Part shown: positions 14,587-58,489 of the stretch, one piece after another
Position numbering within the stretch: position 1 is the stretch's first letter
Layout of the letters: the number at the start of each line of letters is the position of its first letter
DNA from: Spirochaetota bacterium
Lineage (GTDB): Bacteria; Spirochaetota; UBA4802; UBA5550
Direction: 5' to 3'
Assembly (NCBI GenBank): GCA_035400945.1
Contig: DAONAJ010000003.1
Location: forward strand, 88,676 to 152,675
Length of the DNA: 64,000 bases
Notes under the pieces: generated by a model
Told to the model about the DNA's origin: nothing
Database searches by the model: none
The model's input: only the letters and a program-made list of their open reading frames with translations
Made by a program: the position numbers and the translations under genes

Positions 14587-16143
14587 TTAATCATCGATGA
14601 TCAGGGCCATGTTGTGGAGATCCTGCACCATGCAGTCCAGGTCCCGGGAACTCTCCGAAAGCCTCCGGGCCCCCTCGGAGTAGACCTGGGTGATTTCATT
14701 CAGGCTGGTGATGGACTTCACGATCTCGCTCATGGACGCCTTCTGATCAGCCATCGACTTCTTGATCTCGTCGGACATGTTCATGACCGCCCCGGCCTCG
14801 TCGATGACCCTGCGGTTGATCTCCTTCTGGTTTTCCATCTGCTGGGAGATCTCCCGTATCTCGGTGCTGATGGCGCTTACGCCGGAGATGATCTTCATGA
14901 TGGTGGCCACCGTTGCCTCGACGTTGGCCATGCCGCGGCCGATCTCCTCGACGTTCGCCTTGATGAGCCCGTCGATCTCCTTGATGCTCGCCGCGGTCTG
15001 GTCGGCCAGCTTGGATATCTCGTCGGCGACTACGGCGAAGCCGCGCCCGGCCTCGCCGGCCCGGGCCGCCTCGATGGCGGCGTTCAGGCTGAGGAGGTTC
15101 GTCTTGTCGGATATATCGCCGATCATGCCCACGATGCCGGTCATCTGCCCCGAGCTCTCGTTGACCTTCGTGAAGCTCGCGCTCATGGCGCTGAGGACGT
15201 CGCCGCCGCGGTTGGCGACGCCGGACACCTCGTCCGTCAGGGCAAAGGCCTTCTGGATCCGCGCGGCGATCTCCCGGACCGTGCCGGAGAGGGTCTCGAT
15301 GTTCCCCGTGAGGGACACCATGCTGGTGTACTGGTTCACCACGCTGTCGGACACCATGTCGACGCCGCTGGAGATCTCCTCGGAGGTGGCGGTAATCTGT
15401 TCGATGGCCGAGGCCTGGCTCTGGGACTGCATGGAAAAGGAATCCGACTCCTTCGATAGCCGGCCGGAATTGTCCGTCAGCTTTGCCGATACATCCTTAA
15501 TGGAGTCATAGAGGCCCTTGATGACCCGGTACTGGTCCTCGTTTTTCTTCGCCTGTTCTTCCGTGCGGTCAAGGGCCGTTTTATTAATCTTGAATATCTG
15601 GTATGATATGAGACCGATAAAAACAATCGCGATGCCGCTGTCCACCAGGTAATCTATGGATGAGGTTTCATCCAGCTTGAACCTGTCAGACATCAACAGG
15701 AAGAAAAGAATGAATATCAGTAAATTGACCCCCGCATAGAGAAGGATGACCCATTTTTTCTTGGACACTACCAGGGGCGTCAGCACCAGGATGCCCGGAA
15801 TGTACACGATCGTGTCCAGGACGACTATGGAGCTTTTACTTTCATCAAGAAAGAGCGTGGCCCATACGGCAAGAAGGGTGATAATCATGAGCATATGCGC
15901 GGCAACGACATATTTCCCTTTTTTAAGGAAATAAATGGCGATCACCACCATGACCATGACCATGACCAGGGGGGCATTGAGTTCAATAGCCACCTGCCCC
16001 GTCACGATGTTCATGATGATGACGATAGGCACGATGCTGAAGATGATCAGCGAAATCGTGAGGATAATCCGTGATTTCTGCTTCAGGATATAGCTTGAAT
16101 CACGATAGACGCCGAGAAAATAGTCAATGATTTTTGAAAACAT
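14587..16143 (-). CDS. Methyl-accepting chemotaxis protein with N-terminal 6-TM sensor module (family A)
   Basis: 518 aa; about 190 aa polytopic membrane N-terminus, then MCP signalling domain with the highly conserved hairpin tip (NLLSLNAAIEAARAGEAGRGFAVVADEI). Confidence 0.85.
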   Translation of the reverse strand: MFSKIIDYFLGVYRDSSYILKQKSRIILTISLIIFSIVPIVIIMNIVTGQVAIELNAPLVMVMVMVVIAIYFLKKGKYVVAAHMLMIITLLAVWATLFLDESKSSIVVLDTIVYIPGILVLTPLVVSKKKWVILLYAGVNLLIFILFFLLMSDRFKLDETSSIDYLVDSGIAIVFIGLISYQIFKINKTALDRTEEQAKKNEDQYRVIKGLYDSIKDVSAKLTDNSGRLSKESDSFSMQSQSQASAIEQITATSEEISSGVDMVSDSVVNQYTSMVSLTGNIETLSGTVREIAARIQKAFALTDEVSGVANRGGDVLSAMSASFTKVNESSGQMTGIVGMIGDISDKTNLLSLNAAIEAARAGEAGRGFAVVADEISKLADQTAASIKEIDGLIKANVEEIGRGMANVEATVATIMKIISGVSAISTEIREISQQMENQKEINRRVIDEAGAVMNMSDEIKKSMADQKASMSEIVKSITSLNEITQVYSEGARRLSESSRDLDCMVQDLHNMALIIDD

Positions 16144-16266
16144 AGTCGCCCCGTTTGCACCCTCTGAAACAGTAACAGTTTCATCCCCTCGCCCTGGTGC
16201 CGATTGTCATACCATAAACTGAACAGTGGTCAACCATTTTATTTTTTTAGAGAAAAGAAGGCGCAT

Positions 16267-17892
16267 TTAAACCAATCTTCTTATAACGATAACGGTGCAG
16301 TCATCTCCCGGCGGCTTCAGTCCGAGAAACCGGTAGAATTCATCCATGATATGGTCCAGGATAGCCCGGGCGGGACCGGCAGGCCCCCCTTCCAGGGATT
16401 CAATGATACGCTTCTGGCCGTATTGTTCCGCGGATTCATTGACGCTTTCATCAAGACCGTCGGTATACAGGAGCAGGACGTCATCCTTGGCCATGCGGAA
16501 CCGGACAACGTCAAAATCGCCGCTGATGTCATCCATGCCGAGGATGGTCCCCCGCTGGTCCCTGTCCTGCGGCTTGACCATGCCGGCCCTTCCGGTGCCG
16601 GCCCTCCTCATCAGCAGGGCGTGATGGCCGGCATTGACGTATTCCACGCGGTCATCCCTGAACCTGAGCACGATGCCGCTCAGGTAGTTGTCGACGCTGC
16701 TGATGTCCGATTTCAGGTCAGCGTTCACATTCTCAATGACCTTGCCGAGACCGGCATCCTTCATCTGGGTGAAATTCCTCCCGATGATCGATTTCGCCAG
16801 GAGGGTGAAGATCCCCGCCGATATGCCATGGCCCGAAACGTCAAAGAGGGAAAGGCCTGCCAGCCTGTTGTCATGGACGTAAAAGTCATACAGGTCGCCT
16901 GAAACCCCCGCCTTGGGAAGATAGTCGAAGGCCACATCCCACTCGTCCGACGCCGGGGCCTCCCTGGGGAACAGGCTCTCCTGCACCCCGGCCGCCATGG
17001 CCATGTCCAGGGACGCGACGCGCTGGGCGTCCTCCAGCTCGGCGTTGGTATGGACCAGGCGGTCGTTGATAGCTTCGAGCTCCTCCATGGCGGCGTGGAG
17101 CTCCTCGGTGCGCTCCTCCACCTTCTTCTCCAGGTTCCTGTTCAGCTCCTCGACCTCGATCTGGAGCCGGACATAGCGGTTCATCAGAATCTGCGCCATG
17201 GAAAGTATTATGATGATATAGGCGTATTCAATGAGGTATATGAAGGGGTAAACCGCCGCCCCCACCAGGACATCATTGGCCGCGGCGATGAAAAATATCA
17301 CGAAGGCGACAAGGAGGGGGAGAATCTTCCTGTTCCCCGATTTCAGGTCTTTCACGATCAGGTAGAGTATCCACACATACCCCGCCATCATGGAGACATA
17401 CTGCACCAGATAGATGAGGCCCGGATCCACTTCCTGGTAGGTGATGTTGATGTAATTTCCAAGCCTTACCGGTTTCAGCATCGGGCGGTCCAGCGACAAC
17501 GTGAGTTCGTTCCTGACCGCCAGGCCGAGTATGAAAAGAACGAAAAAGTATCCGGCGATAACATAAAACAGCTTGCCGATCCGGTAATGCGAGAAATCAA
17601 AGAGGAACCAGAGCACCGCGATGCAGAGAAGGGCCAGACTGGCAAACTGGAACCGCTGCCAGAACATGCCCTCGGCCAGGGTCTGCGCGTTGTAGAGGCC
17701 CCCGCAGAAGAGGTCGTAGGCGGAAACGATAAAGCAGGTCACGGCGAAGGAAAGCTGTTCTCTCTCCGACCTTCTCCTGAAATACATCCAGAGGTAATAG
17801 AATCCCACGTAGAACGAAACGGACGCGGACATAAAAACAGGCACTGATAACCAGTTCACGGATGCGATCCCTCCTGTACAGCTCTGGTTCAT
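16267..17892 (-). CDS. 7TM receptor (7TMR-DISM-like 7TM, family B) fused to PP2C/SpoIIE protein phosphatase
   Basis: 541 aa; 7 predicted TM helices, coiled-coil linker, SpoIIE/PP2C domain (GDLYDFYVHDNRLAGLSLFDVSGHG...YTDGL). Confidence 0.8.
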   Translation of the reverse strand: MNQSCTGGIASVNWLSVPVFMSASVSFYVGFYYLWMYFRRRSEREQLSFAVTCFIVSAYDLFCGGLYNAQTLAEGMFWQRFQFASLALLCIAVLWFLFDFSHYRIGKLFYVIAGYFFVLFILGLAVRNELTLSLDRPMLKPVRLGNYINITYQEVDPGLIYLVQYVSMMAGYVWILYLIVKDLKSGNRKILPLLVAFVIFFIAAANDVLVGAAVYPFIYLIEYAYIIIILSMAQILMNRYVRLQIEVEELNRNLEKKVEERTEELHAAMEELEAINDRLVHTNAELEDAQRVASLDMAMAAGVQESLFPREAPASDEWDVAFDYLPKAGVSGDLYDFYVHDNRLAGLSLFDVSGHGISAGIFTLLAKSIIGRNFTQMKDAGLGKVIENVNADLKSDISSVDNYLSGIVLRFRDDRVEYVNAGHHALLMRRAGTGRAGMVKPQDRDQRGTILGMDDISGDFDVVRFRMAKDDVLLLYTDGLDESVNESAEQYGQKRIIESLEGGPAGPARAILDHIMDEFYRFLGLKPPGDDCTVIVIRRLV

Positions 17893-18033
17893 GACCGGCC
17901 CCTCAGCCGCGGCCTTTATCCGCCCGCGCCGCAGGACAAGGCGGAATCGCCTGCCATGAATCCCTGCTGGTATATAAATCGGTTCCCCCGCCGATCAAAT
18001 TCAGCATTACAGCGGGGTTTTTGCCCCATATAA

Positions 18034-20973
18034 CTACGGCTTCCCTGCCGCCGGGCCGGCGCTGCCGGCAAAGGTGTCCCTGAACTTCTCGATCGTAATC
18101 CTGAACCGGCCTGAAAGCCTTCCCTCGCGGGCAGCGAGGCGGATGCCCAGGGCCATGTAGGCCGTGCGCATCGATATCTTGTAGGCGCGCGAAAGCCTGA
18201 TGGTCTCCGTCGTGGCCCACCGGAGTATGAATTTAAAGGCGTAATCGTACACCGTTTCGTCAACATGCCTCAGCTCGCCGTTCCAGGCGTCAGGGTGGAA
18301 CCTGCAGACCAGGTTGTGCACGATGGGATGGACGAACCCTTCCCGGTGCATGCGGCCGTAGCCGAAGACCTGGATCAGGCCGTTCAGCCATTCCAGATAC
18401 GAGGCCAGGACCCCGCCGGAATTGGCCAGGATATCGGGGAAGGAGATCCTTCCCATCTCGGTTAGGACGTCCTCCGCGTCGGCGGTCACCGGCCCGTTGG
18501 CGCCCTGGAGGACGTACTCCCCTTCCAGGACCCTCACGTTCACGGTCGTGCCGCGGCCGTCGCCGCGGTTGACGATGACGTCCTCGAGGGCGGAGGGGAC
18601 CACGACGTTCACGACCGCCGAAAGCGGCCGGATCGTGTCCGCCGGGATGAACTCGCCGCGGTCAAGGATTTCCCGGGGAGCGTCGGCGAGCCTGCATGTC
18701 CCGCTCCTGCAGAAGGCGTGAAGGCCGGCGATTCCCTCTATGCCCCGGTCGTTCGCCAGGGTGCCGCTGATGTCGGATATCATCTTTATCTTTCCCCCGA
18801 TGCCGTCGATGATCCCGGCAAAGGAGGCGCCCACCTTGCCGAAGCCCTGGACCGCGAAGGTGAGCATCCTGATGCGGCGGTGCGCCAGGCGGTAAAACTC
18901 TTCGTCGGAGGATAGTGCGTCGCCCACCCTGGCCGGATCGGCCCAGAGGGACGGGTCGCCGTAATCGCCGAAATTCTGCTGCGCCGCCAGTACCTCGACC
19001 AGGCCCCTGCCGGTGGCGCCGGTGCGGATCCGCAGCCCCCGCGCCCCGGGCTTCCCGGTTATGGAGGCGGCGGTATATCCTTCAAGCCTGTCGCGGTCGG
19101 AGGCGAGGGTTTTCACCAGCTCGCCGGAACCGGTGCTGATGCCGAAATTCTCTTTCAGGATGCGCGCCTCCGGGGAATCCGGGGCGAGGGAGCCGGCCAT
19201 GATGGCCTTCAGATCCCGGGAAGCGTTATCCGTTATGCGGTTGAACAGGATGCCGATCTCGTCCGCGCCGATGCCCACGTCCCCGGCGGGAACGTCGGAG
19301 AAGGGCCCCACGCCCGCCCGGTAATAAAGAAAATCGGCGTAGGCGTTGAGGACGTTTTCACGGGCCTCCTTCCCCTCCTCCGCCGGAAGGGAGCTGAAGC
19401 GCAGGTCTCCCAGGATGCCCCCCTTGCCGGCGGCGTAGAGGGGAATTCCCAGGCCGAGGGTCTTGAAGAGCATGTTGGTGGACAGGGCCCCCTCGCCGGA
19501 AAAGGAAACATGGTCCGCGTGGGCCCTGATCCCGCCCTTGCCGATCCCGATCCCGCTGATCCGGATAAAAAGGTACTGCCTGCCGGTCCGGGGCTCCCGG
19601 TAATCTTCATAATAAATGTCGCGGAAGGATATAAGGCGGATGATCTCCTCGTCCGTGAGGGAGCGCGCCGGGCGGTCCGCCTCGCGCTCCAGGGGCACCG
19701 TCGACGCAGTCACGATGTTCTTCAGGGTGGACCAGTAGTAATCGTTCTTCATCTCCGCCGTCGGGTTCAGGAGATAGTGCTTGATCAGGCCGAAGGTCTT
19801 TTCCCGTATGTCACGGTTCCCGTCGTTCAGCAGAAAGACCAGGGGTATCAGGTATTCCTTGCGCTTGTTCTTCTGCATCGCCTCGATCAGGTCAAGCTTC
19901 TCGTAATCCTTTGCGGTCCTGATGCGGTCCAGGAGCTCCCGTATCTCGCCCACCGAAACGGGGGCCGACTGGAGCAGCACCAGCCGGTTATAGAGCTCCC
20001 CTCTCAGGAAATCCTCAACCTCGGGCGAGAGCATCGCGGCCTCGACGCAGGTGGTGAGGGCAATGAAGGCGCGCCCGCCGATAAGGAACGTTTCGAAGTA
20101 CTGGCGGTTGATGGAAATGCCGCGGCGCTCGAAGATCCTGTTGATGGTGCTGAAGTTTTCCTGGAACTTCTCCAGGGGCAGCCAGACCCGGACCATCTTT
20201 TCGTCCGACCCGTCCTCCCGGTCGGGCATGACATCGATATACAGGTCTTCATCGTTGCGGATAAGGGAGCGGACCGACAGCCAGGGAAACAAATAGTTCT
20301 GGATATTGCGCTTTTTTGCATTATGGAGCGCCCTGGTCAAAAATCCGCTCCCGCAGGAGGCGATAAAGTCGCGGATGTCACCGGCGGCGACCGGCGGCGT
20401 TTGGCCGCGAAGCGCCTCCGCCATGAAGGCCGCGGCCCCATCACCTTTGCCGGCTTCGGCGGGCCGCGCCTCCTCCCTCTCGAGGATATAGAGCCTCCGG
20501 ATGTCCCTGTTCTCCGGGTGAAAGCGCACCAGGTACGAATAGAGGCGGAAGCGGCAGGGGCCGCCATCGCTCATGATGCGCTCAATGGCCGCCGTGGTCT
20601 TGCGGACAAGATCGGTCGTATCGGATATGAGGAAGAGGTGCTTGTCGGGAAAATCGCCGCGGACATCTATGTTCCGGTAACAGCCGTCGGCATCGCAGCG
20701 CTCCTTTTCCTGGTAACGGTTGTGCTCCAGGAGAAAAGAAACCTCCTCGATGCTGAGGGACAGCTCTTCCAGGTCACGGTAAAGATAGGGATAGTCCCAT
20801 GAATTGATTTTTGCGGCTATGCTCTCGAGCTCATGGATGATGGATTCGGGCGAAAGATCCGAATGGCTCACCAGGTGGTCATAGAGCCTCTTGACATCCT
20901 TGTCCGATATCAGCCGTGACTTGATCCGGTTCAATCTCTCAGCATAGGGATCCGCTCCGCTTTGTGCCAGCAT
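18034..20973 (-). CDS. Large Glu/Leu/Phe/Val-dehydrogenase superfamily protein (large NAD-GDH-like, about 110 kDa class)
   Basis: 979 aa; C-terminal half carries all GDH signatures (GIGKGGIR and AAGKGGILGD Lys motifs, DVPAGDVGIGADEIG, Rossmann VQGFGKVGASFAG, PDILANSGGVLASYLEW) with an internal insertion of about 35-40 aa; about 470 aa N-terminal region has no domain I recognise. Confidence 0.7.
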   Translation of the reverse strand: MLAQSGADPYAERLNRIKSRLISDKDVKRLYDHLVSHSDLSPESIIHELESIAAKINSWDYPYLYRDLEELSLSIEEVSFLLEHNRYQEKERCDADGCYRNIDVRGDFPDKHLFLISDTTDLVRKTTAAIERIMSDGGPCRFRLYSYLVRFHPENRDIRRLYILEREEARPAEAGKGDGAAAFMAEALRGQTPPVAAGDIRDFIASCGSGFLTRALHNAKKRNIQNYLFPWLSVRSLIRNDEDLYIDVMPDREDGSDEKMVRVWLPLEKFQENFSTINRIFERRGISINRQYFETFLIGGRAFIALTTCVEAAMLSPEVEDFLRGELYNRLVLLQSAPVSVGEIRELLDRIRTAKDYEKLDLIEAMQKNKRKEYLIPLVFLLNDGNRDIREKTFGLIKHYLLNPTAEMKNDYYWSTLKNIVTASTVPLEREADRPARSLTDEEIIRLISFRDIYYEDYREPRTGRQYLFIRISGIGIGKGGIRAHADHVSFSGEGALSTNMLFKTLGLGIPLYAAGKGGILGDLRFSSLPAEEGKEARENVLNAYADFLYYRAGVGPFSDVPAGDVGIGADEIGILFNRITDNASRDLKAIMAGSLAPDSPEARILKENFGISTGSGELVKTLASDRDRLEGYTAASITGKPGARGLRIRTGATGRGLVEVLAAQQNFGDYGDPSLWADPARVGDALSSDEEFYRLAHRRIRMLTFAVQGFGKVGASFAGIIDGIGGKIKMISDISGTLANDRGIEGIAGLHAFCRSGTCRLADAPREILDRGEFIPADTIRPLSAVVNVVVPSALEDVIVNRGDGRGTTVNVRVLEGEYVLQGANGPVTADAEDVLTEMGRISFPDILANSGGVLASYLEWLNGLIQVFGYGRMHREGFVHPIVHNLVCRFHPDAWNGELRHVDETVYDYAFKFILRWATTETIRLSRAYKISMRTAYMALGIRLAAREGRLSGRFRITIEKFRDTFAGSAGPAAGKP

Positions 20974-21015
20974 GATGACCGTTCCTCCTGACCGGGCGCA
21001 CGAACACGCGCTATG

Positions 21016-30093: not shown

Positions 30094-32262
30094 TTACAGC
30101 ACCTTGAAGGCATTGGTCACTCCCTCATAGGAGCTTATTTTACCGGTCCAGCCCGACTTCCAGTTCCCCTTGTGTCGGATCCGATACGTTCCCGGCTCCG
30201 CGTTTTTCGTGTGCCACGTTATGGTTATCTTCGAGTATGATATCCCGTCTCTCTGCCAGCGGTATGTTGTCTCCGGGTCCCAGTCGCGGGCCACGGGGAC
30301 GTAACTCCCGTTCACCAGCTTCTCGACGACCAGGAACGTGTCCTGCGTACGGAGATTGTTGTTGGGGTGGCCGCCCCAGAACTGCGCGCTTACCGTGTCG
30401 CCCCGGCTGTAGCTCGCGCCGGGCTGGGTTATGACATCGCCGAAATTCTTGAAGAGCGGCTTGTCGTCCAGCACCACCTTGGCGGTAAAATCCACGGTGA
30501 GCCCCGTCACGTCCTGGGGAGACGGGCCGGCGGGGACATCGCTGCCGTCAACGATGGCCCTGCAGAGCTTCGCGTATTCCTGGCGGAACGCAGCCAGTTC
30601 GTTGGGACCGAACTGCGTGCAGGCGCCCTCGTACCACTGCATCGCGTATTCCTCCCTGGTGGCAAGATAGGATGCATAGGAGTTGGCGAGGCTCGATACA
30701 ACCGCCATGTCCACGCCGAGTCCGGACAGGCCGGTCACCAGCGTGTCCTTGATGCGGCGTCCCGACATGGTGGTGACCTCGGCGGGAACGGCCGCTATGG
30801 CCAGGTTCCCTATCTTGAGCACCTGGAGCGGCATGACCTGCGGCGTCATGGTCGGCCCGTTGATATTGATATGGGCGATGCCGGTCGGGATGAGCACCGG
30901 TTTCTCGGCCTGGCATTTCTTGTATGCCGCGTCATTGGTGGCGGGCCACGCGAAGGCGAAGACGCCGCCGAGGAACGTGCTCAGGAACGTGCTGGCGGCA
31001 TTGTCGCTCCAGTTAAGGCTGGCAACGGTGGTCCCGTTCGGGAACAACGGCGACGGGCTCGGGTTGTCCGACGGGCTCCCGGCGGAGAAGGAAGCGCCCA
31101 TGCCGGCAGCGCACGTGGTGCATTTCGTCTCTTCCACGTACAGCGTCCGCATGTCCACCCATTCATGGCGGTAATCGATCGAGCCTGAAAGCTCCCTCGT
31201 TGCGCCGTTATACAGTTCTTTCGCCTTATTGTACTGCTTGAGGACCGCATTCTCAAGGCTTTTATTCTTTTCAAAGGTGACGTCAGCCGGGGCCTGGCCG
31301 AAGCCGATGTTGGGCGTCACGTCGCCAGCGCTGGCCTGGGCGAAGGCGGCGACGAAGGTCCTGGCGGCAAGGTAATCGGTTCCCTTGTCCTTTTCGAAAA
31401 GGTATGATGCCCACCCCTTGTTATCGCCGCTGATCAGTCTGTTTTCAGGCCCGATACTGTCGGGATGAACCGCGTACCAGTTCACCATGCCGATCTCCTC
31501 GCCGTCAAGGGTGACGAACTTCAGGAGGGTCATGGTTGTATCGGTAATGCTGCTGTACCGCGCCCGCTCCGCGGCGGGATTGTTGTTATAGGCGGTCTCG
31601 GCGCGGTTTCCGCCGCAGCCCTCGATGGCGCCCTGGGCCACGAGTATCCTCCCCCGCTTCAGGTTGTTATGGGCCCTGAGTATCGACTGGTAAATGCCGT
31701 CAACGATGGCGTTGAAGTTCTGCTTCACGAAGCCGTTGATGGTCACATCGTAGAGGAAATATCCCGAGTAACCCCCGGGGCCGTTGTGGGTGTGCGTGGC
31801 GGAAAGGAGAACGTTCTTCTCATTGTAATATTTCGCCAGATCCGCGTTCCCCGCGATTTTCTCGCAGACCTTGACTTTGACCATCTGGAAGAGCATCCCC
31901 AGGTCCGCGCTCACGAAAACGACCCGCTTGTCAGCGTCACCGATTATGTAGGCGCGCGAGCGGAGCCGCAGGTGAATGCCGGATGTCTTCTGCTCTGACA
32001 CGGCGTATCCCATCATGCCGATTTCAGCCGCTGGTCCGGTTATATCGTAGATCCCGGCGCCGATAAGGTACACGCTTCCGCCGGACCCGGTTGTTTCATT
32101 GGGTTGTATGGCGGTTCCGCCATTACTGTCTGTCTGGCCTGAATCCGATCCTAGAAGGGGAAAGGGATTGTTGTCTGAATCACTATCACAGCCTGGATAC
32201 ACCAGACATAGCATCGAAAAAAGAAAAACAGCCATGAAAAATTTTTTCTTACCATTGCCCAT
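30094..32262 (-). CDS. Neutral/alkaline ceramidase (lipoprotein)
   Basis: 722 aa; signal peptide with Cys lipobox; N-terminal block closely matches the neutral ceramidase signature (YLIGAGIYDITGPAAEIGMMGYA...GIHLRLRSRAYII...VVFVSADLGM...NVLLSATHTHNGPGGY). Confidence 0.8.
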   Translation of the reverse strand: MGNGKKKFFMAVFLFSMLCLVYPGCDSDSDNNPFPLLGSDSGQTDSNGGTAIQPNETTGSGGSVYLIGAGIYDITGPAAEIGMMGYAVSEQKTSGIHLRLRSRAYIIGDADKRVVFVSADLGMLFQMVKVKVCEKIAGNADLAKYYNEKNVLLSATHTHNGPGGYSGYFLYDVTINGFVKQNFNAIVDGIYQSILRAHNNLKRGRILVAQGAIEGCGGNRAETAYNNNPAAERARYSSITDTTMTLLKFVTLDGEEIGMVNWYAVHPDSIGPENRLISGDNKGWASYLFEKDKGTDYLAARTFVAAFAQASAGDVTPNIGFGQAPADVTFEKNKSLENAVLKQYNKAKELYNGATRELSGSIDYRHEWVDMRTLYVEETKCTTCAAGMGASFSAGSPSDNPSPSPLFPNGTTVASLNWSDNAASTFLSTFLGGVFAFAWPATNDAAYKKCQAEKPVLIPTGIAHININGPTMTPQVMPLQVLKIGNLAIAAVPAEVTTMSGRRIKDTLVTGLSGLGVDMAVVSSLANSYASYLATREEYAMQWYEGACTQFGPNELAAFRQEYAKLCRAIVDGSDVPAGPSPQDVTGLTVDFTAKVVLDDKPLFKNFGDVITQPGASYSRGDTVSAQFWGGHPNNNLRTQDTFLVVEKLVNGSYVPVARDWDPETTYRWQRDGISYSKITITWHTKNAEPGTYRIRHKGNWKSGWTGKISSYEGVTNAFKVL

Positions 32263-32478: not shown

Positions 32479-34722
32479 ATGAAAGTAAAAAAAACAAGTA
32501 TCTACACATCCCTTCAGGACTTAATAATAAAAAACTTTCACCTGAGCCCTGAAGCGATGATGGCTCAATTCTGTCAGGGGATCATGGATCTCTACCCTCT
32601 CCAGGGTGCGGCCATTGCCGCAAGAAGCGGGACAGGCTTTGCACTGCGCTATAGCCGAAACATCTTTAATGATAACCCCGACATGGAATTCGACTATACC
32701 GATGCCGATATCATTGTATTCTCAAAGGAAGATAAGCACTCCAAAAACGAGCTCTTCTTTATTCCCGATGGGGAGCGGACCATACTCCTGATACTGGCAC
32801 CATCCAAGAGAAACCGCATCAACGTCCCGGAGATACAGGACGCGGCCAATCTCCTTGCCAGGGTCCTGGTGCAGCAGAAGATGAAGGCCGATCTGCTCCT
32901 CAAGTACAGCAACTACAAGACCATATTCAAGAAAACCTCGAACCTCACGGCAATACTCAACACCCGCGGGGAAGTGGTGGAATGGAACGAGGCGGCGGAG
33001 GAGCTCTTCGGCCGGGACCTTGCCGGCACCCCCGTCAGCTACGTTGATTTCGTCCATGATGACGAACTGACGCGAACCAGGGAGCTGTTCTCCTCGATGT
33101 ACCGCGGCATCATGAAATACCGCAAAACCCTTGACCCGGAGCGGCTGGGGAATGATCCGGCCTACCTGAAAACGGCGCGGGAAACCATCATGGAGATGGG
33201 AACGAGCCAGGGCTTCACCAGGCTGACAAACCGGAGCGGCAGCAAGACCCTTGACGTTGATTACACCATCAGTCTCATCATCCCCCCTGGTTCGCTGGAC
33301 ATACTGGGCTGCATCGTCACCACCACCGATGTCACCAAGCGGAAGGTCATGCGGGAGCGGCTTGAGGAGTCGGAGCGGAAATACCGCGAGCTCTTCAACC
33401 TGGTGCCGCTCTTCTCGATGCTCATCGACACCTCGGGAAAAACCGTTGATTACAACTATGTTTCAATGGAAGACTACGGCCTTGACCCCGGACAGGAGGC
33501 CCTGTCATACATGGATTTCATCCACGAGGAAGACCGCAACCGGGCCGCGTCGCTGTTCATCAACCTCTACACCAGCGCGATCGAGATTAAGAACCGCTGG
33601 ATCAAGGACAAGGCCATCACCATGGATGAATGCGCCAGGGAACTGCGTTCGCTCCGCATCAGGAACGAGCCGCTCCGTCTGCTGAGCCGGGGGAAAGACA
33701 AGTATTTCGAGACCCAGTTCAGCGCCAGCCTCTGGATCGGCGAATCAGACCTCGAGATAAAGGGCGCCCTCCTCTCCGCCATTGACGTGACGGAACGGAA
33801 CAATTACCGGCGGAAACTGGAGGAATCGGAAAAGAAATACCGGGAGCTTGTCGAGGAGAAGACCAGGGACATCATCTTCTCCCTCGACAACAGGGCCCAG
33901 TTCATCATGGTCAACAGCAACATCAGGGAAAAGCTCGGCTACCCGGAGGATTCAGTCATCGGGAAGCACATCATCGACATCCTCTACAAGGACCCCATCG
34001 ACAAGAACCAGATAAACCGGGAAACCTTCCTGGAGAACATCCACCGCGTCCTCGATGACCGCGTCCCCGACGTTCGCTTCAAGGCGGTCTGCGACCACAA
34101 GTTCCTCGGTGAACCGGTGACCCTCCAGTTCAAGCTGGATCCCATCATCGAGAACGACGCCGTCATCGGCATCATGGGCTTCGCGTCGGAGATATCGGAC
34201 GATCCCCTGCGGGAATATCTGGAAAAGGAAACCCTGTCCTACACCATCGACAACCGTCTTACCATAGCGGACGAGGTGAGCTTCCGGATAACGCGCAATC
34301 TGCAGAAGTACCTGCCCATCGGCAAGATAAGCCTGCTGCGCCTCGGCATCAGGGAGATGATCATCAATGCCATCGAACACGGGAACCTGGGCATAACCTA
34401 CGAGGAGAAGACCCTGGCCCAGAAGAACCAGAGCTACCATGATTTACTCCGGGAGCGGCAGATGAGCACCGAGAACCGCCACAAGAAGGTACGCATCGAT
34501 TACCAGTTGAATGAAGAAGCCATAACCTACACCATCAGGGACGAGGGCAAAGGCTTCGACTACCGGAAATTCATCAAGCTCAAGGTCAAAGCACTGAACG
34601 ACCAGATGCTGCAGCACGGCCGCGGCATCCTCATCACCCGGTCCGTTTTTGACCAGATACAATATAACGAAAAGGGAAACGAAGTTCACCTGGTGGCTTT
34701 TTTAAAGAAGAATACCGATTAA
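32479..34722 (+). CDS. Multi-PAS sensor with C-terminal RsbW/SpoIIAB-like GHKL ATPase (anti-sigma-factor-type Ser kinase) domain
   Basis: 747 aa; at least three PAS-like repeats each followed by the coiled-coil signature (RLEESERKYRELF; KLEESEKKYRELV), C-terminal HATPase_c_2-like block (GIREMIINAIEHGNLGI...TIRDEGKGFD...GRGILITRSVFD). Confidence 0.7.
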   Translation: MKVKKTSIYTSLQDLIIKNFHLSPEAMMAQFCQGIMDLYPLQGAAIAARSGTGFALRYSRNIFNDNPDMEFDYTDADIIVFSKEDKHSKNELFFIPDGERTILLILAPSKRNRINVPEIQDAANLLARVLVQQKMKADLLLKYSNYKTIFKKTSNLTAILNTRGEVVEWNEAAEELFGRDLAGTPVSYVDFVHDDELTRTRELFSSMYRGIMKYRKTLDPERLGNDPAYLKTARETIMEMGTSQGFTRLTNRSGSKTLDVDYTISLIIPPGSLDILGCIVTTTDVTKRKVMRERLEESERKYRELFNLVPLFSMLIDTSGKTVDYNYVSMEDYGLDPGQEALSYMDFIHEEDRNRAASLFINLYTSAIEIKNRWIKDKAITMDECARELRSLRIRNEPLRLLSRGKDKYFETQFSASLWIGESDLEIKGALLSAIDVTERNNYRRKLEESEKKYRELVEEKTRDIIFSLDNRAQFIMVNSNIREKLGYPEDSVIGKHIIDILYKDPIDKNQINRETFLENIHRVLDDRVPDVRFKAVCDHKFLGEPVTLQFKLDPIIENDAVIGIMGFASEISDDPLREYLEKETLSYTIDNRLTIADEVSFRITRNLQKYLPIGKISLLRLGIREMIINAIEHGNLGITYEEKTLAQKNQSYHDLLRERQMSTENRHKKVRIDYQLNEEAITYTIRDEGKGFDYRKFIKLKVKALNDQMLQHGRGILITRSVFDQIQYNEKGNEVHLVAFLKKNTD

Positions 34723-50698: not shown

Positions 50699-50782
50699 GG
50701 ATTTTATCTTGACAATTTAGCTGAACACTGTTAAATTAACATTGTTCATATTATTAATGACAATTATTCAGGAAGGACGGCA

Positions 50783-51415
50783 ATGCCCAAAACCAGCAGA
50801 AGCGCCGAAGAAGTGGCGCAGGTCCGGGAGCATATTCTTAGCGCGGCCATCGGGATCATAGCCGACAAGGGATTCAGCCGCCTGAGCATGCGCAGCCTGG
50901 CGTCGGCCATCGGCATGACCGCCGCCAACATCTATAATTATTACAGCAGCAAGGACGAGCTGTACCTTGACATCCAGACCGCCGGATTCCAGGAACTCTA
51001 CGCCCGCTTTGCCGGTGCGCGGGACCGTGAAAAAACGCCGCTGAAAAAAATCGCGGCGATCATGAAGGAATATATATCATACGGAACATCCAACCCGGAC
51101 AGCTACAATATCATCTTCAGCATGGATACGCCCAAGTACGCCGATTACCGCGACACGCAGATCGAGCCGGTTGCCTACGCTGAAAAGAAAGCGGGGCTGG
51201 ACCTCATAGAGATAACCCGCCCCGTCGTGGCGGAGCTTCTGAAAAAGCGCGGGAAGCCAGCCGCCGGGGCATGGAAAAAAACCGTGCAGGCGTGGATCAT
51301 GCTCCATGGCATCGTAAGCCTCATGAACAGCCGCGTCCTCCAGGAGGTGGCGGATGACAGCTCCCGATTCATAGACGAAAGCGTGAAAGACGTTGTCAAT
51401 TACCTGCTCTCATAA
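50783..51415 (+). CDS. TetR/AcrR family transcriptional regulator
   Basis: 210 aa; N-terminal TetR HTH (ILSAAIGIIADKGFSRLSMRSLASAIGMTAANIYNYYSSKDELY); 26 bp upstream of the GRE gene. Confidence 0.85.
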   Translation: MPKTSRSAEEVAQVREHILSAAIGIIADKGFSRLSMRSLASAIGMTAANIYNYYSSKDELYLDIQTAGFQELYARFAGARDREKTPLKKIAAIMKEYISYGTSNPDSYNIIFSMDTPKYADYRDTQIEPVAYAEKKAGLDLIEITRPVVAELLKKRGKPAAGAWKKTVQAWIMLHGIVSLMNSRVLQEVADDSSRFIDESVKDVVNYLLS

Positions 51416-51441
51416 AACCTGACGCTACCGGGAGACCGCCC

Positions 51442-54399
51442 ATGAACATCATAACCTACATTCTCCTCCGCCTCATGGCCCTGCTCTTCAACCTGCGGCC
51501 CTCGCTGCGGAACTACCTCGCCGGCGCGGACGGCTTCATCAACTTCGTCGTGGGGTTCGCCACGGAAGACGGCAGCGTCAACCGCGCCATTTCCTTCCGC
51601 GACGGAAAGGTCAGGGCGCTGCGCCGCATACCCGCCGATGCGGACGTGACCCTGCGGTTCCGGAGCGGCAGGACCCTCATGGAGATGCTCAGGATTACCC
51701 CCAACGAAATGCTCATCCTTATCCTGAACAACAAGATGATCCTCGAGGGAAACATCGCCTATCTCCAGCTCTTCAACTTTTACATATCGCTGCTCCTGTG
51801 GAAAACCCACCGGCGAATGCTGGACAGAAAACAGAAGAAGGACATCAGGGAGCGGAAGCGGCAGTACGGCTCCGATAGGGCCGCTCCCGGCGACGATCTT
51901 CCCGCCCGCCGCAGGGGAATGCTCCGCGCCCCCTCGGTCGACCGGAACGTGAAGCATCTCGCGGACCCCTACCTGGCCGATTACAGTCTCGACGATTTCC
52001 CGCGCCTGCGGTGGATGCTGGACCGCCATTTCGACCGCATGCCGCAGCTCTGCGTGGAGCGGCCGAAGCTCCTCACCGACTGGTACCGGGCCAACGGCTT
52101 CGAGACCGACGCATCCGGAAAGCCCTGGGTGCCGGTACTGCGGCAGGCACTGGCCTTCAAGCATCTCATGGAACACAAAAAGCCGATAATCGCCGAGAGG
52201 GAGCTGATCGCGGGCACCAGCACCGCGAAGGAGCCCACCGGCGTCATCATATATCCCGACGCCCAGGGCACCATGCTCTGGGGCGAACTCAGGTCGATCG
52301 GCGACCGCGTTCTCAATCCCTACACGATCAGTCCGGAAGACGCCGACATCCTCCACCACGAGATCTTCCCCTTCTGGGCAACGCGGAACTTCAGGGAGTA
52401 TGTGCGCACGAAATACAACCATCCCCTCTGCCTCAAGATCGACGAGCGCTGGGTCTACTACTTCGTATGGAAATCGGTGGGCGTGTCCCATACCGTGCCG
52501 GACTACCCGGCGCTGCTGTCCCGGGGAACCCGGGGCCTGGCCTCCGATATCGATGCCGCCCTTTCGAGACTCGGCGATACAGACGCCGATCGCCGCGCCA
52601 ATCTCGAGGCGATGAAACTGTGCCTGGAAGCCCTCGATATCTACGGGAGGAACCTTTCCCTTGAAGCGGCGCGCCTCGCAGCGGCGGAACCGGACCCGTC
52701 CCGCCGCGCCGAACTGGAGAGGATCGCGCAGATCTGCGGCCGGGTGCCGCGGGAACCGGCCCGCACCCTCGACGAGGCGGTGAACGCGGTCTGGATCGCG
52801 TGGGTGGCCCTCCACATGGAAAACACCAACACGGGCCTCTCCCTGGGCCGCCTGGACCAGTGGCTCCAGCCCTATTTCGCCGCGGACATGGAGGCCATCG
52901 CCGACGACGCCGGCCGCGACGCGTACCTGAAACGCGCCATCGAGCTCGTCGGCTGCCTCTACATGCGCGGCACCGACCACCTTCCCCTCGTGCCCGACAT
53001 CGGCAACTACCTCTTCGGCGGGAGCTCGTCGGACCAGGCGATAACCCTCGGCGGGGTAACCCCGGACGGTAGCGACGGCGTGTGCGACATGACCTACATC
53101 ATGCTCAAGGTCACCGAGATGCTCTCCATCAGGGACCCCAACGTGAATGCCCGCTTCAACCCGGACCGGAACAGCGAGGCCTACCTGGATCGCCTCTGCG
53201 AGGTCAACTACGTGACCGCGGCAACGCCGTCGATGCACAACGACCGCTCCGTGTCCGCGTCCCTGGAGGACAAGGGCTACGACCCCCGTCACGTGCGCGA
53301 CTGGTCTGCCACCGGCTGCGTCGAGCCGACCCTGTCCGGCCGCCACATGGGTCACACGGGCTCGATACTGATGAACATGGTTTCGGCCCTCGAGATGGCC
53401 CTCAACAACGGGAACCACCCCCACGTGAACTGGCAGCTTGGACCCCGGACCGGATCCGTCGAGGGCGGTGACTTCGTCTCCTTCGAGGACTTCTTCAACG
53501 CCTGGGCGGCGCAGCAGCGTTTTCTCATCGACCAGGCGGTGGAGCTCAATAACCTCTATGCCGAGGCCCATGCCCGGTACCGTCCGTCGCCCCTCCTGAG
53601 CGCCCTCATCGACGGGTGCATAGCAAACGGCCTGGACGTGACCGCCGGCGGCGCCCGCTACAACAGCTCCGGGAGCTCTAATATCGGCCTGGCGGACGTG
53701 ACCGATTCCCTCATGGCGGTCAAGACACTGGTCTTCGACGAAAAGAAGGTCTCCTTCGCGGACCTCAAAAAAGCCATCGATACCGATTTCCGCGACGCTC
53801 CGGCCCTGCGCGCCCTGGTGCAGCGGAAGGTTCCCCTCTTCGGGTCCGGAGACCAGGCCGCCCTTGACATGGCCCGGCGGGTGGCCCGGGTCGTCCATGA
53901 CGCCTACGCGGCCCACCGCAACTACCGGGGCGGGCCCTACACCTCGGGCTTCTGGTCCATGTCGCAGCACGTGGCCTACGGCACCCTCTCGGGCACGCTC
54001 CCGTCGGGGCGCCTCTCGGGCAAGGCCTTCACCCCGGGGCTCACGCCGCAGCCCTCCGCGTCGCCGAGCTTCCTCGACAACATACGCGACGTGGCGCGCC
54101 TCGACCCGGCCTGCATGGACAACAACATCGCCTTCAACGTGAAGCTGGTCCCCGCGGCCGGCGAAAGCCGCGGGGACATCGTGAAAGCCATGAGGAATTA
54201 CGTGAAGACCTATTTCGACCTGGGCGGCATGCAGATGCAGTTCAACGTGGTGAACTCCGCCACGCTGAAAGACGCCATGGCCAACCCCGAAAAATACCGC
54301 AACCTGCTGGTGCGGATATCGGGCTACAACGCCTATTTCGTGACGCTGAATCGCGAGATGCAGATAGAGCTGATAGAGCGGGCGGAATACGGCATGTGA
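51442..54399 (+). CDS. Glycyl radical enzyme (PFL2/glycerol-dehydratase-like clade) with N-terminal SCP2-like domain
   Basis: 985 aa; C-terminal glycyl radical motif RISGYNAYFV; active-site Cys loop SATGCVEPTLSG with Glu (eliminase-type); residues about 20-120 resemble the SCP2 sterol-carrier fold (DVTLRFRSGRTLMEMLRITPNEMLILILNNKMILEGNIAYLQLFNF). Confidence 0.85.
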   Translation: MNIITYILLRLMALLFNLRPSLRNYLAGADGFINFVVGFATEDGSVNRAISFRDGKVRALRRIPADADVTLRFRSGRTLMEMLRITPNEMLILILNNKMILEGNIAYLQLFNFYISLLLWKTHRRMLDRKQKKDIRERKRQYGSDRAAPGDDLPARRRGMLRAPSVDRNVKHLADPYLADYSLDDFPRLRWMLDRHFDRMPQLCVERPKLLTDWYRANGFETDASGKPWVPVLRQALAFKHLMEHKKPIIAERELIAGTSTAKEPTGVIIYPDAQGTMLWGELRSIGDRVLNPYTISPEDADILHHEIFPFWATRNFREYVRTKYNHPLCLKIDERWVYYFVWKSVGVSHTVPDYPALLSRGTRGLASDIDAALSRLGDTDADRRANLEAMKLCLEALDIYGRNLSLEAARLAAAEPDPSRRAELERIAQICGRVPREPARTLDEAVNAVWIAWVALHMENTNTGLSLGRLDQWLQPYFAADMEAIADDAGRDAYLKRAIELVGCLYMRGTDHLPLVPDIGNYLFGGSSSDQAITLGGVTPDGSDGVCDMTYIMLKVTEMLSIRDPNVNARFNPDRNSEAYLDRLCEVNYVTAATPSMHNDRSVSASLEDKGYDPRHVRDWSATGCVEPTLSGRHMGHTGSILMNMVSALEMALNNGNHPHVNWQLGPRTGSVEGGDFVSFEDFFNAWAAQQRFLIDQAVELNNLYAEAHARYRPSPLLSALIDGCIANGLDVTAGGARYNSSGSSNIGLADVTDSLMAVKTLVFDEKKVSFADLKKAIDTDFRDAPALRALVQRKVPLFGSGDQAALDMARRVARVVHDAYAAHRNYRGGPYTSGFWSMSQHVAYGTLSGTLPSGRLSGKAFTPGLTPQPSASPSFLDNIRDVARLDPACMDNNIAFNVKLVPAAGESRGDIVKAMRNYVKTYFDLGGMQMQFNVVNSATLKDAMANPEKYRNLLVRISGYNAYFVTLNREMQIELIERAEYGM

Positions 54400-54538
54400 C
54401 TCATGCCGTGGGGCAAAACAAAGGATCAAGTATTGCCGGCAATTGTACGATAATACGGTATGCATGCCGCCGACGGCGGCACCGGGAATTGATCATTACG
54501 TTTTCCAGGCAGATTGACACTATTCCGGAGAAACCGCG

Positions 54539-54949: not shown

Positions 54950-55834
54950 ATGGGTGAATTCTTCAGCGGATACTGGCTGCTTATTACAATTTTAACGATC
55001 GTGTTCCTGGCGATCTTCTTTTCAGGGATACGGATAGTCCGCCCGACACACCGCGGCCTGATCGAACGCCTCGGCAAATACACCCGCTTTGCCCAGCCGG
55101 GCTTTCACTGGATCATCCCCGTCATCGAGCGGATGTTCCGGGTCAACGTCACGGAACAGATGGTCGACGCCAAGCCCCAGGAAATCATAACCAACGACAA
55201 CCTGAACGCCCGGGTGGACGCCCAGGTCTACTTCAAGGTGAAGGCCGACGAGGAGAGCGTCAAGAATTCCCAGTACAACGTCAACAACTACGAACTGCAG
55301 ATAGTGAATCTGGCGCGGACCACCCTGCGGAACATCATCGGCACCATGACGCTGAAATCGGCGAACAGCGAGCGGAGCAAGATCAACTCCGACCTGCTGC
55401 TGACCCTCTGCAAGGAAACGGAAAAATGGGGGCTGGAGGTCGTCAGGACCGAACTGAAGGAGATCGACCCGCCCAAGGACGTACAGGAGACGATGAACAA
55501 GGTGGTGAAGGCGGAGAACGAGAAGATCGCCGCCATCGATTTCGCCACCGCGACCGAGACCGCCGCCGACGGCCAGAAGCGCGCCGACATCAAGAAGGCG
55601 GAAGGGGTGCGGCAGGCGCGGATACTGGCGGCCGACGGCGAGGCCCAGGCGATCAAGCTGGTGAACGAGGCGGCCAACCAGTATTTCATTGGAAACGCGC
55701 AGCTGCTGCGGAGGATCCAGATGCTCGAAGAGGCCCTGAAAAACAACGCGAAGATCGTGGTCCCCGCCGGGACCGACCTGGTCAACGTCCTGGGCGAAAT
55801 GGCGGGCATCGTGCCGCTGAAGCGCGGGAACTAG
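54950..55834 (+). CDS. SPFH/band-7 (stomatin/prohibitin-like) membrane protein
   Basis: 294 aa; N-terminal TM anchor, SPFH core, Ala/Glu-rich coiled-coil C-terminus. Confidence 0.85.
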   Translation: MGEFFSGYWLLITILTIVFLAIFFSGIRIVRPTHRGLIERLGKYTRFAQPGFHWIIPVIERMFRVNVTEQMVDAKPQEIITNDNLNARVDAQVYFKVKADEESVKNSQYNVNNYELQIVNLARTTLRNIIGTMTLKSANSERSKINSDLLLTLCKETEKWGLEVVRTELKEIDPPKDVQETMNKVVKAENEKIAAIDFATATETAADGQKRADIKKAEGVRQARILAADGEAQAIKLVNEAANQYFIGNAQLLRRIQMLEEALKNNAKIVVPAGTDLVNVLGEMAGIVPLKRGN

Positions 55835-55942
55835 CGGGAAGAACCCCGCCAGTTCCCTGCCGCGTAAAAACCGGGACGATTTAACCGGCCATCACCGCGC
55901 AGGTCCGCCATCGTCCGCGCTGAAGAACCGGTCTCCGCGCCG

Positions 55943-56499
55943 TCAGAAGGCGTAGAGGCGCTGGCCCGCTATGACCATGACGCCCTGCCTGAAATCAATG
56001 TTCTTGCCCCTGCCGGCGACACCGCACCCGCCCATTTCCACGAAGAAGGTCCAGTGCTTCATCACGTAGATTTCTATGGCGCCGAAAAAACGCGAGGCGA
56101 AGAAGGGGCCGCGCCTGCGGGTTACATCGTACACGATGCCTCCCGTGACGCCGACATAGAGCCTGCTCTGCAGGTAGATGGGGGTCTTCCACAGGAGCCC
56201 CACGGACGGCATGACCGCAGTGCTCCAGTGCCGCGAGGTCGTAAGGCCCGTCATGGATTGGCGGAAGTAGTACTGGTTGGTAATGACCGGCGCGTCTATG
56301 CGGACGGCAAAGCCCTTGTCCAGGAAGACATGGAAATCAAGGCCATACATCGGGTCCTCATTGTAGAGGCCCACCGGGATACCGATGCCAAATCGCTGGT
56401 TATAGCGCGGCTCCTCCCCCGGCTTGATCGGCTGGGCCGCCGCAAATGAAACGGCCGCCATGACGAGTAACAAAGTCGGCACACATGCCCGAAAAACCA
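55943..56499 (-). CDS. Hypothetical outer-membrane/secreted protein
   Basis: Start at MVFRACVPTLLLVMAAVSFAAAQP (signal peptide); alternating beta-like pattern, C-terminal aromatic (…QRLYAF). Confidence 0.5.
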
Positions 56500-56597
56500 T
56501 GCTGTCACCTCCACTTTGATGTTTAATGCACCACCCGGTTTCACACCGCAACAATCTCACCGGTGAAATAGTTTCCCCGTCCGGAAACGATTTGCCT

Positions 56598-58489
56598 CTA
56601 TTTGCCCCTCGCCAGGAGCGCCTCGATGCGCGACAGGAGGTCCTGGCCGTTAAAGGGCTTGGTGATGTAATCGTCGGCTATGTTTACCTGGCCGTCATCG
56701 ATATCGCTCGATTCCACCCGCGCGGTGAGCATGATGACCGGTATATGCTTCAGCGCATCATCCTCCCTCAGCCGCTTGGTCATCTCATACCCGTTCATCA
56801 CCGGCATCATCACGTCGGTGATGACAAGATCCGGTTTCTTTGCTGCTGCCGCGACCAGGCCTTCCCGGCCGTTCTCGGCGCAGCGCACCAGGTACCGGCG
56901 CTCGAGGAGCGTGGTGAGATACTTCCGCATATCCGTATTGTCCTCCACCACCAGGAGCGACGCTTCGGGCCTGGCCGGCGCCGCCGCGGGTCCCGGGGGG
57001 GTCTCCCTGGCCTCGCTCATGAACCTCATCTCCACCGCCCGCTGCTGAAACAGCTGACCGCCCTTCTCCCCCGGCTGCAGGTACTGGATCCCGGGAAAGT
57101 ATTTCCACTGCGCCGTCCCCTTGGGGAGCATGATGGTGAACACGGTGCCGTGGTCATCGGGATTGTCGCCGGCATAGACGCTCTCCACCGATACCGTGCC
57201 GCCGTGCAGCTGGACCAGTTCCCTGACCAGGGAGAGGCCGATGCCGGAGCCTTCGCCCCGGCGGTGCGCGCCGGCATGGGCCTGGCCGAAGCGGTCAAAG
57301 ATGATGTCAAGGTTGTCCCGGGGGATGCCCGCCCCGGTGTCCTCGAACTCGATGTAGCAGGCCCGGTCATCGTCGATGACCCTGACCGTTATGGAGCCGC
57401 CGGGCTCCGTGTACTTGAAGGCGTTGGAGAACAGGTTCATGAATACCTTGTCCATCTTTTCGGGATCGAAATAGACCATGATGGAGTCCCTGGACGATAT
57501 CACTTTAAGTTCCAGCCGCCGCGTTTCAAAGGCGGAGCGGACCGTGTCGATATAAGACCGCACGAAGGCGACCATGTCCTGCTCGGCCACGACCATGGGC
57601 ATGCGGCCCGCGTCGAGCCGTGCGAGGTCCAGCAGGTTGTTGACGAGGTTCAGGAGCCGCGAGGCGTTGCGCTCGACCGTCAGGAGGAGATTGCGGTCAA
57701 GGGGGACTCCCTGGTCTTCCTGGAGGGCCGATTCGACCGGTGCCAGGATCATGGTCAGCGGCGTCCTGATTTCATGGGATATGTTGGCGAAGAAGTTGGA
57801 CTTGATGCGGTCCATTTCCTTCAGCTTCTCATTCGCCTCCTGGAGCTCCTCGGTCCGGTCGTGGACCATCTCCTCGAGGTGCTGGGCCAGGTCCCGGTTC
57901 TTCTCCATTTCCTCCTCGGCAAGGCGCAGGGCCCGGTCGTTGATCCTGAATATCTGATAGGACATGAAGCCGATGAAAATGAAGGCTATGATGTTGTCGA
58001 TGAGATAATCGGTCAGGGCGAACACTGAAAGATTGAACAGGTCCTTTGCCCGCATGCTGAAAACAATAAAAACGGCGATATTAACGGCGCAGTAGACAGC
58101 GATGCTGACCTTGCGCCGCGACACCACGATCGGCGTCAGGACCAGGAGGCCGATGGCATAGACGATCGTGTCCAGGACTATGACGCTTTCGGTATTGATA
58201 TCGAAAAACAGCGCCCCCCAGACTGCAGCCAGGCATATGCAGAGAACCATGTGGGCGGACAGGCTGAACCTTCCCGTTCTCAGCAGATACAGGGCAATGA
58301 ACATTAATATCAGCCCCGTGACCAGGGGCGACAGGACTTCCACTGACGCATTATTGCGGGCTATATTGGTGACAATGAGGACAATAAAAACAGCCAGGAT
58401 GACGAAGGTTACGGCAAGGATAAGCTTTGATTTCTGCTGGAGGACATAATCAGCGTTTTTGTATTTTCTCAGAAATAAATCGGCCAGTT
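56598..58489 (-). CDS. Hybrid sensor histidine kinase/response regulator with N-terminal 6-TM sensor module (family A)
   Basis: Start at MGKKLADLF; N-terminal membrane domain paralogous to the MCP N-terminus (DYVLQQKSKLILAV..., LLRTGRFSLSAHM); HisKA (SHEIRTPL), HATPase_c (GTGIGLSLV), C-terminal REC (DVMMPVMNG…K). Confidence 0.85.

Follow-up and report, generated by a model that had tools for sequence, protein, structure and literature searches.

A six-helix membrane module precedes chemoreceptor, phosphatase and hybrid-kinase outputs in a Spirochaetota bacterium and is a likely MASE-type sensor domain

The window analyzed here is a 64,000-nucleotide stretch of DNA from a Spirochaetota bacterium (GTDB lineage UBA4802; UBA5550; NCBI GenBank assembly GCA_035400945.1, contig DAONAJ010000003.1, positions 88,676 to 152,675 of the forward strand). 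It contains three genes, encoding a methyl-accepting chemotaxis protein (MCP), a PP2C/SpoIIE phosphatase and a hybrid histidine kinase, whose products all begin with a membrane module of six transmembrane (TM) helices. An earlier reading of the same letters, hereafter the original prediction, held that one sensing module is wired to three different signaling outputs at this locus. The outputs that it named are all present on three existing open reading frames (ORFs), as MCPsignal, as SpoIIE, and as HisKA with HATPase_c and Response_reg (Table 1). Its kinase start at 58489 is out of frame and has to be corrected. The longest ORF spans 56598-58541 on the minus strand, and the true start is the ATG at 58499, which is backed both by an independent 633-residue gene call on the source contig and by orthologues that start MGKKLADLFL. 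In Pfam searches of the three window proteins, neither a HAMP nor a PAS domain turned up between the membrane helices and the output (no HAMP even at E ≤ 1), and no PAS or GAF domain was present anywhere in the MCP, the phosphatase or the hybrid kinase.

The genes are supported beyond this contig. The exact 443-residue phosphatase protein is called on 15 metagenome contigs, MCP orthologues with 60-93% identity occur in five loci from Spirochaetota metagenome-assembled genomes (MAGs), and the MCP and kinase copies are each kept as orthologues in other MAG species. One kinase orthologue (locus L001, 10001-11481 of ERZ25039513 contig_10289) is broken into three or four short ORFs, probably by assembly frameshift errors.

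Table 1. Genes, membrane modules and output domains discussed in the text. Positions are those of the window unless stated otherwise; aa, amino acids; HMM, hidden Markov model; AF2, AlphaFold2.
Feature	Position	Strand	Evidence and remarks
MCP gene, 518 aa	14587..16143	-	ORF; six-TM module joined directly to MCP signaling domain, no HAMP/PAS
Six-TM module of MCP (MCP_N), aa 1-197	15553..16143	-	Family HMM, 218.5 bits, HMM positions 1-202
MCP signaling domain, aa 304-446	14806..15234	-	PF00015 MCPsignal, 109.2 bits (cutoff 34.6), E = 2.7e-31
PP2C/SpoIIE phosphatase gene, 443 aa	26866..28197	+	ORF; divergent six-TM module and SpoIIE domain
Divergent six-TM module of phosphatase (PP2C_N), aa 1-199	26866..27462	+	Family HMM, hhalign, shuffle controls, AF2
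SpoIIE (PP2C) catalytic domain, aa 253-442	27622..28191	+	PF07228, 151.7 bits (cutoff 25), E = 3e-44
Hybrid histidine kinase gene, 633 aa	56598..58499	-	Six-TM module, coiled coil, HisKA, HATPase_c, receiver (REC)
Six-TM module of hybrid kinase (HK_N), aa 1-197	57909..58499	-	Family HMM, 212.6 bits; AF2 model
HisKA (DHp) domain of hybrid kinase	57606..57803	-	PF00512, 60.1 bits, E = 2.2e-16
HATPase_c catalytic domain of hybrid kinase	57120..57467	-	PF02518, 92.6 bits, E = 2.8e-26
C-terminal REC of hybrid kinase	56622..56954	-	PF00072, 89.7 bits, E = 1.8e-25
Fourth six-TM copy, 559 aa, module-PAS-HisKA_2/HWE-HATPase_c kinase	3.4-5.1 kb left of window position 1; ERZ22666056 k127_59717392 165927-167606; L015 15944-17623	-	Family HMM

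Pairwise and profile alignment, the check that the original prediction had suggested, upheld the homology of all three N-termini, to very different degrees. Its description of them as clearly paralogous fits MCP_N and HK_N, which are 43% identical over 203 residues without a gap (E = 6e-64); for PP2C_N the relationship is far weaker, at 19-26% identity to the other two (BLASTP E about 1e-6), and was missed by phmmer at default filters. An alignment of 49 sequences, each sharing 26-43% identity with the kinase module, defines a signature of seven residues: the aspartates D110 and D168 never vary, and Y13, G76, W94, Y136 and N140 each reach 90% conservation or more. Recurrent motifs of the family are QQKA(R), LL+.G.Y..AAH, W...F.D......RLDTIV, TPL, Y...N, DY..DN and Y.IF.IN..AL. 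All seven signature residues are present in MCP_N and HK_N.

With MCP_N and HK_N together as the query, exhaustive HMMER searching placed these modules in a family of 437 clusters (representatives at 50% identity) at E ≤ 1e-3, or 315 at E ≤ 1e-10. Output and position counts cover 150 listed representatives of the 437 clusters: the module is N-terminal in every one and essentially complete in 141. About 88 are kinases with HATPase_c and a HisKA, HisKA_2/HWE or HisKA_3 phosphoacceptor domain, 18 carry MCPsignal, seven SpoIIE and three GGDEF (two of these with EAL), while REC occurs in 31 and one or more PAS domains in about 88. One protein flagged as a GGDEF member by a regular-expression hunt (P0089) proved to be a false positive and is a SpoIIE protein. 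On a neighbor-joining tree of 111 modules, histidine kinase is the inferred root state and output type changes at least 13 times, compared with 26.6 changes when labels are shuffled; the module has therefore recombined repeatedly among outputs.

Only the exhaustive HMMER search brought the family to light. In a word-indexed homologue search, HK_N returned one 120-residue fragment, PP2C_N returned nothing and the 49-sequence profile returned two fragments. All members with a phylum-level label are Spirochaetota, Spirochaetes or Leptospirales, and all come from MAGs; one further record is labeled 'bacterium' only. This taxonomic range is a lower bound, because the locus search from a two-sequence alignment reaches close relatives only.

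We next consider the phosphatase module, for which the evidence is of a different kind. Against a family HMM built from the 141 essentially complete modules, PP2C_N matches end to end (HMM 4-201, protein 5-199; 38.5 bits, E = 7.5e-12). Against the same model, the remaining membrane proteins of the window, among them a 12-TM MFS transporter and both HisKA_7TM proteins, do not rise above noise. Comparison of the 49-sequence alignment with PP2C_N by hhalign gave a probability of 95% (E = 3.9e-8, 183 columns), whereas the same profile compared with the window's HisKA_7TM module gave 0.25% over 18 columns. As a further control, PP2C_N was permuted inside 5-residue blocks, which retains its TM pattern; the real sequence scored 40.4 bits, while the maximum of 300 shuffles was 16.3 (mean -4.0, standard deviation 5.6) and the reversed sequence scored -9.6. 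The first half of PP2C_N, comprising an amphipathic helix and TM1-3, reached 34.3 bits on its own against a shuffle maximum of 17.9. Conversely, jackhmmer seeded with PP2C_N retrieved 150 of the 150 family representatives, and the SpoIIE domain of the phosphatase is related to those of seven family members of equal architecture.

The objection that the original prediction had raised against itself, namely that the likeness might be generic TM hydrophobicity, thus does not hold for any of the three N-termini, since the module has conserved polar positions (Y13, G76, W94, D110, Y136, N140 and D168) and PP2C_N as a whole scores far outside the shuffle range. In both the MAFFT and the hhalign alignments, PP2C_N retains Y13, G76 and D110 (R-M-D-Y-I where the others have R-L-D-T-I) and has lost four of the seven signature residues, W94, Y136, N140 and D168. 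The two shared motifs that had been proposed fared accordingly: the first (FL..Y.........K...L) is common to all three proteins, and the second is reduced in the phosphatase to LLR.GRY..A, with AAVN in place of AAHM. Judged by these alignments, PP2C_N is a real but divergent, partly degenerate relative of MCP_N and HK_N.

The survey for further fusions that had been suggested was also productive, both in the other outputs of the family and close by. The contig flanks were covered for about 8.4 kb beyond the left edge of the window and 6.6 kb beyond the right (10 kb on each side of a window gene), and the window is also contained in a 262-kb metagenome contig (ERZ22666056 k127_59717392). A fourth copy of the module lies in the left flank (Table 1). 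It scores 241.9 bits, the top match to the family consensus in the locus scan, has all seven signature residues and is 31-34% identical to MCP_N and HK_N; it also shares 31% identity with the C-terminal region of PP2C_N across 67 residues (E = 3.5e-5). Four copies of the module thus occur in four architectures within about 64 kb.

The six TM helices of the original prediction are upheld by hydropathy and by AlphaFold. The AlphaFold2 model of HK_N, fed with the 49-sequence alignment, is a six-helix bundle of high confidence (pLDDT 94.2, pTM 0.88) with helices at residues 2-9, 18-47, 53-74, 78-99, 105-125, 131-155 and 159-196. A short N-terminal amphipathic helix ahead of the bundle bears the FL..Y motif, the helix at 105-125 is kinked at the LDTIV...TP motif, the loops between helices measure 3-5 residues, and TM6 (159-196) forms one unbroken helix that runs beyond the membrane toward the output. 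Across the 141 complete members, the median periplasmic loop lengths are 11, 4 and 3 residues, and Lys/Arg clusters at the N-terminal tail and loops 2 and 4, a positive-inside pattern that fits a topology with both termini in the cytoplasm. Acidic residues are found in TM6 and TM4 (means of 2.4 and 1.1 per member, respectively). Combining the modeled helix boundaries with this topology, W94, D100, D110, D164/Y165 and D168 would lie in the outer half of the bilayer, and H83, Y136 and N140 in the inner half. For PP2C_N, a model based on 18 family sequences has the same helix order as HK_N at a mean pLDDT of 79.9, a prediction that depends on the alignment that fed it. Confidence is 84-95 for residues 1-100 and 53-80 thereafter, a drop consistent with a second half that has diverged.

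A search for a named sensor family, likewise suggested at the outset, was run on Pfam and NCBIfam. Over the N-terminal ~200 residues of each of the three window proteins, no model reached its threshold, even at E ≤ 1, and no TM-domain family was among the 25 commonest families in either batch of the 150 representatives. The 2025 copy of Pfam that was used covers named TM-sensor families including MASE1-5, such later MASE models as it contains, 5TM-5TMR_LYT, 7TMR-DISM, HisKA_7TM, MHYT and others. One apparent name, PF24820 ('Diguanylate cyclase-like sensor'), was rejected, as it matches residues 401-460, a cytoplasmic PAS-like stretch. The module thus has no existing model in these collections and is apparently an uncatalogued domain.

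By description, its closest relatives are the MASE domains. For MASE1-MASE12, a sensory role was argued from promiscuity across outputs (Nikolskaya/Galperin; bioRxiv 10.1101/2021.11.05.467447). The present module shares with them an N-terminal, multi-TM location with minimal and poorly conserved loops, conserved polar, charged and aromatic residues inside the helices, and attachment to several kinds of output, at least two of them unrelated. It differs in having no above-threshold Pfam or NCBIfam match for the module in the three window proteins or the 150 members, and in that its labeled members are all Spirochaetota. A literature search found no definitions of MASE13 or later. The nearest individual domain is MASE10, the six-TM domain of V. 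cholerae VC1295, which is found on HD-GYP, cyclase and PP2C outputs (bioRxiv 10.1101/2021.11.05.467447). Both have six TM helices with charged residues in them (including two Asp in MASE10) and both occur on PP2C phosphatases. MASE10, however, is always followed by HAMP, which is absent from the three window proteins and from the 25 commonest families per batch; it conserves Cys, Ser and Trp in periplasmic loops, whereas the loops here are 3-5 residues long and unconserved, with W94 inside TM3; and its HD-GYP and cyclase outputs contrast with the kinases and MCPs that dominate here. This separation from MASE10 is drawn from the description of that domain. HisKA_7TM and 7TMR-DISM_7TM (PF16927 and PF07695) are promiscuous multi-TM sensors as well, and HisKA_7TM occurs twice in the window (on SpoIIE and GAF-AraC outputs). 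It has seven helices, its profile is unrelated by the hhalign comparison given above, and the Pfam models of this group miss the six-TM proteins.

A further comparison is with the hexahelical domains of class III adenylyl cyclases (human AC9, M. tuberculosis Cya/Rv1625c) and of CqsS, which resemble the module in having six TM helices with both ends cytoplasmic and a TM6 that continues into a cytosolic coiled coil driving a dimeric output. In a Foldseek search of the PDB, the best geometric matches were the TM domains of AC9 (9u3v, TMq 0.65, probability 0.91; 9u3s, TMq 0.59, root-mean-square deviation 4.3 Å), and all E-values were above 1; the resemblance is suggestive, not significant, and may be generic to up-and-down bundles of six TM helices. 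No sequence match to a PDB chain emerged even at E ≤ 10, and cyclases were not seen among the outputs of the family. The acidic extracellular site of Cya (D123, E164 and D170) has been proposed to bind cations (PMC9433096), and a receptor function of six-TM anchors was shown with CqsS chimeras (PMC4821796). One could speculate that the module corresponds in bacteria to these 'orphan receptor' domains, whether through common descent or through convergence, with D110 (TM4), D168 (TM6) and W94 forming a pocket for a cation or a lipid/amine head group whose occupancy would be relayed via TM6. We rate this idea as unlikely.

Together, these data make it likely that the MCP, the phosphatase and the kinase all start with copies of a single promiscuous sensor domain that is embedded in the membrane, is of the MASE type and had no name before. 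A sensory function is suggested by architecture and conservation, and since none of the three proteins has a PAS or GAF domain, no candidate input other than the module is left to them. The claim of the same module on three outputs within 45 kb stands insofar as a homologous six-TM module precedes three outputs within 44 kb; that it is the same sensing module may be true of the MCP and kinase copies (43% identity, seven of seven residues) and is probably not true of the phosphatase copy, at about 20% identity and with W94, Y136, N140 and D168 lost. In the mechanism that we propose, the cue would lie within the membrane or at its outer face, and the module would not be a detector of soluble ligands in the periplasm; it might respond to a cation or a proton, to a lipid, to the head group of an amine or lipid, or to a physical property or state of the membrane. 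The protein would act as a homodimer in which TM6, extended as a coiled coil, relays the signal to the helical element that follows: the DHp helix in the kinase, the helical bundle in the MCP or, in the phosphatase, the regulatory helix before the SpoIIE domain. The MCP and kinase copies may let a single cue act on chemotaxis as well as on a phosphorelay, which is plausible because both keep the signature residues and are conserved as orthologues. The phosphatase copy has kept its N-terminal half, yet it has lost four of these residues and for that reason probably reads a different signal, or else serves mainly as an anchor or dimerizer.

The region around these genes is unusually rich in signal-transduction genes. 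The fourth copy is adjoined by another PAS kinase, a STAS protein and a 7TMR-DISM-MCP; the STAS gene lies about 1 kb beyond the left window edge, and none was identified inside the window. A 747-residue PAS-PAS-HATPase_c_2 protein (32479-34722, plus strand) has an RsbW-like anti-sigma kinase domain with PAS inputs and is a possible partner-switching component near two SpoIIE phosphatases. For the six-TM phosphatase itself, a partner-switching role is predicted from its domain family. The two HisKA_7TM (PF16927) N-termini (16267-17892 and 28204-29913, both minus strand) are 52% identical over 255 residues (E = 1e-94) and have different outputs, one SpoIIE and the other GAF with an AraC-type HTH, which would be a membrane-tethered transcription factor. 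Each of these genes adjoins a six-TM-module gene, and the adjacency to the MCP is kept in loci L004 and L005 and not in L006 and L007. A full-length homologue of neutral/alkaline ceramidase with a lipoprotein-like N-terminus (30094-32262, minus strand; PF04734 E = 6e-153, PF17048 E = 5e-52) lies beside the 7TM-GAF-AraC regulator and the six-TM phosphatase. Farther along, a 1021-residue ORF (51400-54465, minus strand) with no Pfam hit was discarded as an antisense artifact; the gene call there is a 985-residue PFL-like glycyl-radical enzyme on the plus strand. About 2-6 kb to the right of the window end are a GAF-HD_5 (HD-GYP-type) protein (L014 781-2856) and a cNMP-binding SpoIIE phosphatase (L014 3994-5229).

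The kinase sits in a block of its own, with a Band7/SPFH gene (54950-55834, plus strand), a divergent gene for a 135-residue membrane protein without a family match (58736-59143, plus strand) and two paralogous lipoproteins with START domains, a lipid-binding fold (59153-59851 and 59952-60629, both minus strand). This block is kept in loci L001-L003, down to a Leptospirales MAG with 72% kinase identity, and may reflect a lipid theme or merely synteny among relatives.

Several other readings were weighed against that of a MASE-type sensor. If the similarity of the phosphatase were generic TM hydrophobicity, the module would be common to the MCP and the kinase only; this would account for the low pairwise identity, the missing match with default phmmer filters, the absence of four signature residues and a C-terminal half that on its own stays inside the shuffle range. 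It would leave unexplained the collinear, end-to-end scores of 38.5-40.4 bits, the hhalign result set against that for a different multi-TM sensor, the silence of the other window membrane proteins under the family HMM, the SpoIIE output on seven other members and the match of the fourth copy to the very half in doubt. We consider this explanation largely refuted already and essentially excluded. Less remote, and still unlikely in our view, is a passive anchor, in which the six helices only tether and dimerize the outputs and sensing is left to cytoplasmic PAS/GAF domains or does not occur. The PAS domains that follow the module in about 88 of the 150 members may be what actually senses, the module exposes almost nothing to the periplasm, and the phosphatase copy persists despite the loss of most signature residues. 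However, PAS and GAF domains are missing from the three window proteins, leaving the module as their sole possible input; invariant buried aspartates and the conserved Asn, Trp and tyrosines are hard to reconcile with a mere anchor; and recombination with at least four output classes is typical of sensor domains.

It is similarly improbable, and perhaps slightly more so, that sensing is indirect, with the module docking a partner membrane protein that perceives the signal, as in partner-dependent intramembrane-sensing kinases. The very short loops are like those of such kinases, and candidate partners exist beside the kinase in the conserved, divergent 135-residue TM protein and the START lipoproteins, since the block of two START genes, the TM protein, the kinase and Band7 is retained in L001-L003 down to 72% protein identity. 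Yet the MCP and phosphatase copies have other neighbors, the adjacency of the MCP to the 7TM-SpoIIE gene is absent in L006 and L007, no ABC-transporter partner is found nearby, and the synteny is seen among close relatives only and may reflect recency. We therefore favor a MASE-type sensor domain, against which a number of points must be set. The second half of PP2C_N alone is marginal (11.3 bits against a shuffle maximum of 12.3), even if it is nonetheless aligned in register. The sensory role is argued, as in the naming of MASE domains, from promiscuous architecture and polar conservation within the membrane. Residues were placed from helix boundaries and topology and not from coordinates, so that a common pocket of D110, D168 and W94 is a prediction. 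The taxonomic restriction is drawn from few labeled sequences and a pattern-limited genome scan, and the gene neighborhoods, which come from fairly close relatives, carry no weighty functional clue.

The pairing of one sensor domain with many outputs is familiar, and this module would be a fresh example of it; it would also add an apparently uncatalogued input domain, with about 437 clusters at 50% identity, to the bacterial signaling repertoire. A domain model would improve the annotation of Spirochaetota MAGs, in which these proteins are now labeled by their outputs only. Should the resemblance to adenylyl cyclases be real, the module would offer a simple bacterial system for what six-TM anchors sense, and a pocket of the proposed kind, wired to a kinase and a chemoreceptor, would make signaling by such anchors tractable. 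Because the module is the sole possible input of the MCP and the kinase and both copies retain all signature residues, these two form a natural pair for asking whether one cue governs both chemotaxis and a phosphorelay in this bacterium.

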